Shown here one piece after another: positions 763-2,356 of a stretch of 32,000 nucleotides of DNA (within the stretch, counting starts at the first letter, position 1; every line of letters begins with the position of its first letter). Made by a program: the position numbers and the translations under genes. The notes under the pieces are model-generated. The model saw nothing but the letters and a program-made list of their open reading frames with translations. It was not told where the DNA came from and did not search any database. The DNA is from Cupriavidus necator (GTDB taxonomy: Bacteria > Pseudomonadota > Gammaproteobacteria > Burkholderiales > Burkholderiaceae): NCBI RefSeq assembly GCF_016127575.1, contig NZ_CP066018.1:3360001-3392000 (forward strand), read 5' to 3'.

Positions 763-2356
763 TTTCGGCTCGCAGGTCACGCAGCTGATCGCCCGCCGCG
801 TCCGCGAGGCGCACGTCTATTGCGAGATCCACCCGAACGACGTCTCCGACGACTTCGTCCGCGAGTTCGCCCCCAAGGCCATCATCCTGTCCGGCAGCCA
901 CGCCAGCACCTATGAAGACCACCAGCTGCGCGCGCCGCAGGCCGTGTGGGACCTGGGCGTGCCGGTGCTGGGCATCTGCTACGGCATGCAGACCATGGCC
1001 GTGCAGCTGGGCGGCAAGGTCGAGTGGAGCGACCACCGCGAATTCGGCTACGCCGAGGTGCGCGCCCATGGCCACACCAACCTGCTCAAGGACATCGAGG
1101 ATTTCCGCACGCCGGAAGGCCATGGCATGCTCAAGGTCTGGATGAGCCACGGCGACAAGGTTGCCGGCCTGCCGCCGGGCTTCAAGCTGATGGCCTCCAC
1201 CCCCAGCTGCCCGATCGCCGGCATGGCCGACGAGGCGCGCGGCTACTACGCGGTGCAGTTCCACCCCGAGGTCACGCATACCGCCAAGGGCCGCCAGATG
1301 CTGGAGCGCTTCGTGCTCGGCATCGCCGGCTGCAAGCCTGACTGGGTCATGCGCGACCATATCGAGGAAGCCGTCGCCAAGATTCGCGAGCAGGTCGGCG
1401 ATGAAGAGGTCATCCTGGGCCTGTCCGGCGGCGTCGACTCGTCGGTGGCCGCGGCGCTGATCCACCGCGCCATTGGCGATCAGCTCACCTGCGTGTTCGT
1501 CGACCACGGCCTGCTGCGCCAGGACGAAGGCAAGCTGGTGATGGAAATGTTTGTCGGCCGCCTGCACGCCAAGGTCGTGCATATCGACGCCTCCGAACAG
1601 TTCCTCGGCCACCTGGCCGGCGTGACCGATCCCGAGCAGAAGCGCAAGATCATCGGCCGCGAGTTCGTGGAAGTGTTCCAGGCCGAGGCCAGGAAGCTGT
1701 CCAATGCAAAGTGGCTGGCGCAGGGCACGATCTATCCGGACGTGGTGGAGTCGGGTGGCACCAAGACCAAGAAGGCCACCACCATCAAGAGCCACCACAA
1801 CGTCGGCGGCCTGCCGGAAACGCTGGGCCTGAAGCTGCTCGAGCCGCTGCGCGACCTGTTCAAGGACGAAGTGCGCGAGCTCGGCGTGGCCCTGGGCCTG
1901 CCGCCGGAAATGGTCTACCGCCACCCGTTCCCGGGCCCGGGCCTGGGCGTGCGCATCCTTGGCGAAGTCAAGCGCGACTACGCCGACCTGCTGCGCCGCG
2001 CCGATGCCATCTTCATCGAAGAACTGCGCAAGACCCTCGCCACCGAACAGGACGCCGCCGCGGGCCTGTGCGAGCCGGACCAGGTCGGCAAGAGCTGGTA
2101 CGACCTGACCAGCCAGGCCTTCGCCGTGTTCCTGCCGGTCAAGTCCGTGGGCGTGATGGGCGACGGCCGTACCTACGACTACGTCGTGGCGCTGCGCGCG
2201 GTGCAGACCACCGATTTCATGACCGCGCACTGGGCGCACCTGCCGTATGCGCTGCTAGGCCGTTGCTCTAACCGGATCATTAACGAAGTACGTGGCCTGA
2301 ACCGGGTTGTGTATGACGTGTCGGGGAAACCGCCGGCGACGATCGAGTGGGAGTGA
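737..2356 (+). CDS. guaA: GMP synthase (glutamine-hydrolysing)
   Basis: 539 aa with an N-terminal class-I glutamine amidotransferase domain ([22 protein letters not shown]). It has the ATP-PPase P-loop SGGVDSS and the conserved C-terminus [10 protein letters not shown]. Confidence 0.97.

Follow-up and report, generated by a model that had tools for sequence, protein, structure and literature searches.

Atypical codons and a decayed attachment site at the 3′ end of guaA in Cupriavidus necator

Does an abrupt change of codon usage at the end of a gene record the arrival of a mobile element? The question is raised by a 32,000-nucleotide stretch of Cupriavidus necator DNA (contig NZ_CP066018.1, positions 3,360,001 to 3,392,000; hereafter the window, with positions counted from its first letter), in which guaA, the gene for GMP synthase, ends in a run of atypical codons a few hundred base pairs ahead of a block of stress genes. 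The guaA integrase of the tripartite Mesorhizobium integrative and conjugative elements (ICEs) is a tyrosine recombinase with the guaA 3′ end as its bacterial attachment site (attB). An initial annotation of the window proposed that an integrating element had carried its own copy of the guaA 3′ end, about 110 bp long, and replaced the resident one, that the stress block was the cargo of this element, and that its right attachment site (attR) and integrase lay further right. We find that the codon anomaly is real and that a truncated left attachment site (attL) lies beside it, and that elements of the family concerned leave the guaA tail as it was.

The codon switch and the element junction

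The window lies on chromosome 1 of C. necator H16: proteins encoded just right of its edge are identical to CAJ93089.1 and CAJ93081.1 of that strain, and the GuaA protein is unchanged and in the same context across many H16-type assemblies; we refer to the sequence as H16. Four features meet at the end of guaA:
737–2356, + strand: guaA (GMP synthase), 539 aa, the same protein in many C. necator H16-type assemblies
2246–2341, + strand: guaA tail with atypical codons (A/T third positions, locally rare codons, protein unchanged)
2342–2356, + strand: predicted core attachment sequence ATCGAGTGGGAGTGA, 15 bp, the last four sense codons and the stop codon of guaA
2357–2441, + strand: truncated integrase-proximal (P′) arm, 85 bp, with two internal deletions relative to intact copies

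Codons ending in A/T number 44/503 before position 2246 and 12/37 after it (P = 1.2e-4, Fisher's exact test); the boundary was picked after inspection of the data, and the anomaly is nevertheless judged to be more than chance. Between TAT at 2246 and AAA at 2327–2329, 11/28 codons end in A/T, as the initial annotation had counted, the highest count for any 28-codon window of guaA, and no such window starting before codon 489 has seven. Five codons of the tail (CTA, TCT, CGG, GTA, and GGG) have zero uses in the first 503 codons and three more (CGT, GTT, and AAA) have one use each. The protein meanwhile stays GuaA-like, again as first described, its tail being identical to that of C. agavae. GC content at third codon positions (GC3) falls from 0.91 in the gene body to 0.70 in the tail, the largest drop among the 80 betaproteobacterial guaA loci (at least two Cupriavidus species) listed by a genome scan, which we extended with further Cupriavidus contexts found by exact-protein look-ups; together these cover part of the genus Cupriavidus.

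The last 15 nt of guaA are best read as the core attachment site. Sequences of occupied and empty sites in C. metallidurans part immediately after TGA, and in the attR of a CMGI-3-like element, which lies beside a native FMO-like gene, only ATCGAGTGGGAGTGA of guaA is repeated before the native downstream sequence; because of these two comparisons we place the core at 15 bp. The 160 nt upstream of ATCGAGTGGGAGTGA in this attR have 28% identity to the guaA tail, which is the random level, and the right end of the element carries trbI, DUF2274, AbiEi, and AbiEii. A P arm would be marked by GACGGTAA repeats ahead of ATCGAGTGGGAGTGA.

Element DNA begins directly after the guaA stop codon in H16. 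In a multiple alignment, positions 2357–2441 are homologous to the regions between the guaA stop and the integrase gene (int) of loci L008, L099, L105, L106, and R. solanacearum L125, a region of ~300 bp that is conserved among these elements of four other Cupriavidus/Ralstonia species. The H16 segment keeps one GGCGGTAG repeat unit (GRCGGTA-type repeats are typical of the arm), and homology of the window to the element arm stops at CCCTCCCGTTCA (2441). A blastn search with 2368–2440 gives matches at the same guaA offset in Ottowia, Hydrogenophaga, Xenophilus, Curvibacter, and a Rhodocyclaceae metagenome-assembled genome (E 1e-13 to 1e-4), and P′ arms at this offset are matched in 10 other taxa in all; arms homologous to 2357–2441 include those of six Comamonadaceae/Rhodocyclaceae loci. 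Empty C. metallidurans sites have wholly different DNA, with a terminator-like hairpin, right after TGA. The arm alignment and the different DNA at empty sites together show that 2357–2441 derives from an element and that the window contains a truncated attL. We conclude, from sequence comparison, that H16 carries the truncated attL arm of an element of the epsilon15/CMGI-3 lineage from which the integrase has gone. The attL first proposed for the guaA 3′ end thus stands as a remnant, made of a 15-bp core and an 85-bp truncated arm, and falls as an att copy of ~100 bp, the core being 15 nt only.

That the guaA 3′ end is a target of tyrosine recombinases, as the initial annotation had stated, agrees with the literature, in which it is the attachment site of tyrosine-recombinase elements in this genus (10.1101/542381, PMC8138268, PMC7019866) and guaA is documented as an integration target more widely (PMC5704250; 10.64898/2026.01.12.698999). 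CMGI-3 of C. metallidurans is flanked by guaA (PMC7019866), and epsilon15 and CMGI-3 belong to one integrase lineage targeting guaA (10.1101/542381; PMC8138268). CMGI-3 (strain CH34) and other Tn4371-family ICEs share with H16 the genus, the target at the extreme guaA 3′ end, and the 15-bp core (PMC7019866; 10.1101/542381); CMGI-3-type ICEs also have an integrase-proximal arm homologous to 2357–2441, and their integrase has Arm-DNA-bind_3, Phage_int_M, and Phage_integrase domains. Unlike them, H16 retains the core and 85 bp of arm, and no integrase, trb/tra gene, AbiEi/AbiEii end, or attR was found in its 58 kb downstream of guaA. Epsilon15 is a Salmonella phage, and Klebsiella epsilon15-like prophage records have the same order of guaA end, ~190 bp, and int; epsilon15-type elements differ in being phages, not ICEs, in having no DNA-level arm homology to the window, and in having virion genomes without a guaA-like tail. 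Integrative mobilizable elements of the GIsul2/PIME type also use the guaA 3′ end as attB (PMC5704250; 10.64898/2026.01.12.698999) and are likened here by description.

Elements of this family do not replace the guaA tail. The tails of occupied (L103, L105, L106) and empty (L104, L107–L109) C. metallidurans sites are identical, with the few tail variants of this species tracking strain background, not occupancy, and in R. solanacearum, which has the full arm and integrase, tail GC3 (0.89) equals gene-body GC3. No guaA-like segment is present in virion-derived epsilon15-type genomes, the sole phage matches being prophage records that include host flank, and no displaced or duplicated guaA tail was found at the other junction, where the CMGI-3-like attR repeats 15 nt, or in the H16 stretch, which has no guaA remnant. 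Given unchanged tails and a 15-nt repeat in attR, integration would swap at most 15 identical bases and could not yield a codon change over 110 nt. Occupied and empty sites with identical tails, an attR repeating only the last 15 nt, and phage genomes lacking the tail all contradict the proposal that the element brought its own guaA 3′ end.

Several candidates for travelling tails were rejected. Matches suggesting att-borne guaA tails on plasmids are guaA fragments beside ISCR2/IS91, and those on phages are prophage records with host flank. Among tails that might move with elements between distant taxa none is common to such taxa; a likeness between C. oxalaticus and Pigmentiphaga reflects an identical protein and G-ending codons. 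A 19-nt match to guaA positions −118 to −100, 4 kb downstream in C. oxalaticus, is taken to be chance, its extension being no better than shuffled sequence.

Integrases and guaA tails in relatives

Among the 80 listed loci, 16 have a related open reading frame (ORF) of ~400–480 aa directly downstream of guaA. In intact loci the gene after the arm encodes Arm-DNA-bind_3, Phage_int_M, and Phage_integrase domains (Pfam), all three of which are present in the integrase of the closest species, C. necator A5-1 (L008). This integrase, the nearest intact one to that lost from H16, has epsilon15-type integrases as its best phage matches (50–52% identity over 95% of its length).

The state of the site differs widely among relatives. 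C. metallidurans strains sharing one GuaA protein have the site empty or filled with one of two integrase types; C. oxalaticus-type strains have, after guaA, an intact integrase with a defence island, integrase fragments fused to AbiEi/AbiEii, or copies of IS110; and R. solanacearum RSCM has guaA, a 300-bp spacer, and then an integrase. The loci form a decay series from intact int (L008, L100, L103, L105, L106) through an N-terminal int pseudogene (L094/L095) to int fragments fused to AbiEi (L098, L099, L102). A check for a synteny break, which the initial annotation had called for, places it right after guaA in every relative examined, and gene content differs per lineage. The guaA-proximal region is a variable hot spot with lineage-specific content, and in the necator/oxalaticus/pinatubonensis clade every site examined is occupied or scarred.

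Atypical tails are common in this clade. Cupriavidus sp. UYPR2.512-type loci (L094/L095), whose guaA has 97.6% nucleotide identity and which lack the stress block, share the codons ATT, GTA, GTT, AAA, CGT, and TAT of the tail with H16. Tail GC3 is 0.78 in A5-1, 0.86 in C. oxalaticus, and 0.76 in C. pinatubonensis, with some atypical codons at the H16 positions and many at others, and all three have an arm, pseudogene, or integrase beside guaA. The atypical tail is common, with variation, to L095, L008, L098, and L119 and absent in C. agavae, C. metallidurans, and R. solanacearum; the normal tail GC3 in C. agavae and C. metallidurans is 0.92. Parsimony spreads the derived A/T-ending codons over several branches, and the excess of tail substitutions is significant only on the branch leading to H16 and UYPR2.512 (P = 0.02). 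Between the H16/UYPR2.512 lineages and C. oxalaticus the tail has diverged by 12.6% and the gene body by 5.8% (P = 0.008). The anomaly is a property of guaA tails across the C. necator/oxalaticus/pinatubonensis clade. The initial annotation had tied the tail to the stress block and had itself named an atypical tail in relatives without the block as an outcome contrary to its model; such relatives have the same kind of tail, and the atypical tail predates the block and is independent of it.

Other arrangements at guaA were observed along the way. In L094/L095 an N-terminal integrase pseudogene (11621–12240 and downstream) lies right after guaA and is followed by a catabolic GntR/porin/flavin-reductase/DLH/RraA/LigB cluster; the same GntR-to-LigB cluster sits on the 2.7–2.8 Mb second replicon in C. 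taiwanensis and C. pinatubonensis, making this a second case of second-replicon genes placed beside a guaA scar. In Ottowia thiooxydans (L076) there are two copies of the integrase-proximal arm (11696–11738 and 16139–16176), the second 4.5 kb downstream and with no core ahead of it, which suggests tandem accretion and rearrangement at the guaA site. An unrelated metagenome-assembled genome of an uncultured betaproteobacterium (L032) has a decayed 125-nt pseudo-copy of the guaA tail (~16490–16615), 5 kb downstream of guaA, with the stop codon kept, many nonsynonymous changes, and no integrase between the copies; next come phosphoribosyltransferase (PRTase)-hydrolase genes that have relatives in the H16 block. 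Fragments of the guaA 3′ end, ~207 nt long, also occur on plasmids with the resistance genes sul2, tet(X5), and floR, where they end at the stop codon ~110 bp upstream of ISCR2/ISVsa3, an IS91-like insertion sequence (L122 5001–5207, Klebsiella pneumoniae; L123 5001–5207, Acinetobacter baumannii; L124, Comamonas). These plasmid fragments look like the captured flank of a guaA-integrated island rather than att arms.

The stress block and the search for a far end

Beyond the arm remnant the window continues as follows:
2442–2711, no strand assigned: non-coding DNA that separates the arm remnant from the stop codon of SulP, with a candidate integrase fragment at 2478–2654
2712–4499, − strand: SulP/STAS transporter, first gene of the stress and hypoxia block
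2712–32000, no strand assigned: stress and hypoxia gene block, extending to window-equivalent ~57.5 kb, ~55 kb in total

The 355 bp from 2357 to 2711 contain no convincing ORF, in keeping with the first impression of non-coding DNA, and the next gene is SulP. Positions 2442–2711 have no homologue in any fetched locus. A tblastn search with 12 guaA-adjacent integrases gives only weak collinear matches, at 2478–2654, to three related integrases (residues ~254–314); a profile hidden Markov model scores 1.1 bits there, a value reached by 15/1000 shuffles (P ~0.015), and there is no Pfam match. An integrase fragment at 2478–2654 is possible. Scans of the region found no promoter, terminator, Rfam match, or tRNA.

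Within the window the block comprises genes for DoxX, a P-type ATPase, a beta-CASP metallo-hydrolase, several universal stress proteins (Usp), a LuxR-type response regulator, an ADP-forming acyl-CoA synthetase/GNAT, two BON-domain proteins, Hsp20, CRP/FNR, a thymidine-phosphorylase-like protein, a TPM-domain protein, alanine dehydrogenase, and PhaC/PhaB. We assembled the H16 sequence outward by exact-protein look-ups to window-equivalent 60,359, which is 58 kb downstream of guaA and 28 kb past the right edge. Beyond the window the block contains nitroreductases, PRTase, BON, a GroEL paralogue, DksA-like, APH/AAA_33, and LRAT genes, a hemerythrin P-type ATPase, a PAS-HisKA_3 kinase, sulfur-transport genes, an MBL-fold hydrolase, PPK2, a YHS P-type ATPase, and an archaeal-type AdoMet synthetase, and it ends at ~57.5 kb, ahead of a methylcrotonyl-CoA carboxylase-like gene.

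No far end of an element was found in this sequence. The window has no integrase (the initial annotation had noted none at the guaA end), and the 58 kb of H16 sequence that follow guaA contain neither an integrase nor a GuaA remnant, a tRNA, or an ICE right-end gene; a second ATCGAGTGGGAGTGA (at most 3 mismatches, + orientation) is likewise absent up to window-equivalent 60,359. The guaA tail has no direct repeat in the window or the next 10 kb. Pfam scans of the window genes found no conjugation (trb/tra) or AbiEi/AbiEii/DUF2274 genes and no integrase, and tblastn with TrbI, DUF2274, AbiEi, and AbiEii (from L117) gave no match in the H16 composite. The attR and integrase anticipated beyond the right edge are thus missing from the next 28 kb.

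The block is not downstream of guaA in any relative examined, and homologous blocks lie on other replicons: a plasmid of C. necator H850, the 2.8-Mb replicon of C. taiwanensis/neocaledonicus, and a 770-kb contig of UYPR2.512. Element homology ends 270 bp ahead of the first gene of the block. The stress block sits in a hot spot and is not demonstrated att-bounded cargo.

With its Usp cluster, Hsp20, BON, polyhydroxyalkanoate (PHA) synthase, and FNR-type regulator, the H16 block resembles the lxa locus of Burkholderia cenocepacia by Pfam domains only. The lxa locus is similar in size (~50 kb) and in content (Usp, alpha-crystallin/Hsp20, phospholipid-binding BON, PHA synthesis, transporters, regulators; PMC3721108); it lies on replicon 2 and is not predicted as an island (PMC3721108), whereas the H16 block adjoins an ICE scar on chromosome 1.

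Over the window and loci L004, L111, and L114 the block totals at least five Usp genes, Hsp20, three BON genes, a PhaC of 591 aa with PhaB, and three P-type ATPases. It also contains gene fragments, a sign of possible decay: the C-terminal part of a DUF2252 gene, the N-terminal part of a PRPP synthetase, 96 aa of an FtsH Peptidase_M41, and 56 aa of a formate/nitrite transporter (the fragments lie at window 6719–7069, L111 13776–14021, and L114 12042–12332 and 18475–18645). A lower-GC stretch at 5000–8000 contains several ORFs without a Pfam match.

Proposed history and rival explanations

How, then, might the junction, the tail, and the block be related? The account that we hold to be probable, by a modest measure, combines a decayed attL scar, a separate arrival of the block, and a tail anomaly that does not stem from the integration of that element. 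A guaA-specific tyrosine integrase of the epsilon15/CMGI-3 lineage would have used the last 15 nt of guaA as core, and the inserted element, judging by relatives, would have been an ICE of the Tn4371/CMGI-3 type or what remained of one after collapse. Deletion would then have removed the integrase gene along with everything else of the element, leaving the core and the 85-bp arm, and other DNA would have joined the scar at 2441/2442, first 270 bp and then the ~55-kb stress block. Because hot-spot content varies by lineage and homologous blocks lie on secondary replicons, the block was most likely brought in by a separate rearrangement, not as att-bounded cargo. Nor is the codon anomaly the footprint of that integration, because integration swaps at most 15 identical bases. 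With low confidence we attribute it to recombination turnover of the hot-spot flank, in which guaA would provide the homology for exchange between island variants; a longer guaA-like att region, brought by an older element, may have added to it.

Several observations weigh against this account. The H16 sequence covered here retains no attR, integrase, or conjugation gene, which leaves 85 bp and position to identify the element. The GC-to-AT excess in the tail is not significant when pooled (P = 0.1), the nearest neighbours of the tails track the species tree, and no guaA tails are common to distant taxa. The C. metallidurans site is also a hot spot, yet its tail is normal. Recombination turnover as the cause of the codon bias is our inference, and exchange between Cupriavidus donors that are all high in GC does not on its own account for an enrichment of A/T-ending codons.

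The tail may instead have arisen in place without mobile elements, by drift or by locally relaxed or altered synonymous selection over the final 37 codons, as might follow if the native terminator context had been lost. Atypical codons accrue on several branches and at different positions, tail and gene body have congruent phylogenies, and there are zero nonsynonymous changes, all of which favour such an origin. Against it, the drop in GC3 amounts to four standard deviations, the largest of the 80 listed loci; the anomaly coincides with an occupied or scarred site in all affected lineages and is absent where sites are empty; and scans for a promoter, terminator, or RNA family that could supply a selective reason gave nothing. 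We regard this origin as unlikely, though it is the strongest of the rivals.

Less likely again is that the ancestor of C. necator, C. oxalaticus, and C. pinatubonensis had its tail replaced by an earlier guaA-targeting element of another kind, one whose att region was long and guaA-like, a CMGI-3-type element integrating later at the new stop codon. TAT (twice) and CGG occur in the whole clade and not in C. agavae or C. metallidurans, the L032 pseudo-tail proves that long duplicated tails exist, and L076 illustrates tandem accretion at the site. Most atypical codons are, however, lineage-specific, at other positions in H16, C. oxalaticus, and C. pinatubonensis, so that a single import would leave the majority unexplained. 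No displaced tail was found, and all differences are synonymous, so that the tail would always have been under protein-level selection.

A more general idea, to which we give about the same small credence, is that such anomalies are the footprint of long-term occupancy of an att site in a protein gene: flank exchange (Hfr-like transfer or guaA-armed homologous recombination) or integrase-associated damage would erode codon bias in the last ~100 nt, although site-specific recombination itself affects just 15 bp, and the same scar would serve as a landing pad for the 55-kb hypoxia/stress block with phaC2 and phaB2, moving from a secondary replicon to chromosome 1.

The original model, in which an element-borne guaA end replaced the resident one and the block was cargo, is very improbable: it accommodates the codon anomaly itself, the known target (PMC5704250; 10.1101/542381), the attL arm, the lineage-specific presence of the block at this position, and the duplication of a 125-nt guaA pseudo-tail seen at a site of this kind in L032, but it is at odds with a core of 15 bp and tails unaffected by occupancy, the lack of a guaA tail in epsilon15-type phage genomes, atypical tails in relatives without the block, 58 kb of downstream DNA without integrase, second core, guaA remnant, tRNA, or ICE right-end gene, and element homology that stops at 2441, short of the block.

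Integration at guaA is already on record, in Cupriavidus as elsewhere, and the H16 scar is an ordinary decayed case. For C. necator H16, a biotechnology workhorse, it marks a decayed ICE junction at guaA on chromosome 1, adjoined by a ~55-kb block (Usp, Hsp20, BON, phaC2/phaB2, a GroEL paralogue, P-type ATPases) in a variable hot spot, which relatives carry on secondary replicons. The case also offers a lesson of method: when codon usage switches near the end of a target gene, this does not alone prove that an element replaced that end.

On its other side, guaA has a conserved 207-aa ORF ahead of it, with guaB and smpB further upstream. The 207-aa ORF (139–762) has no Pfam domain and overlaps the guaA start by 26 nt (737–762), an arrangement also present in C. 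metallidurans, C. oxalaticus, and C. pinatubonensis.

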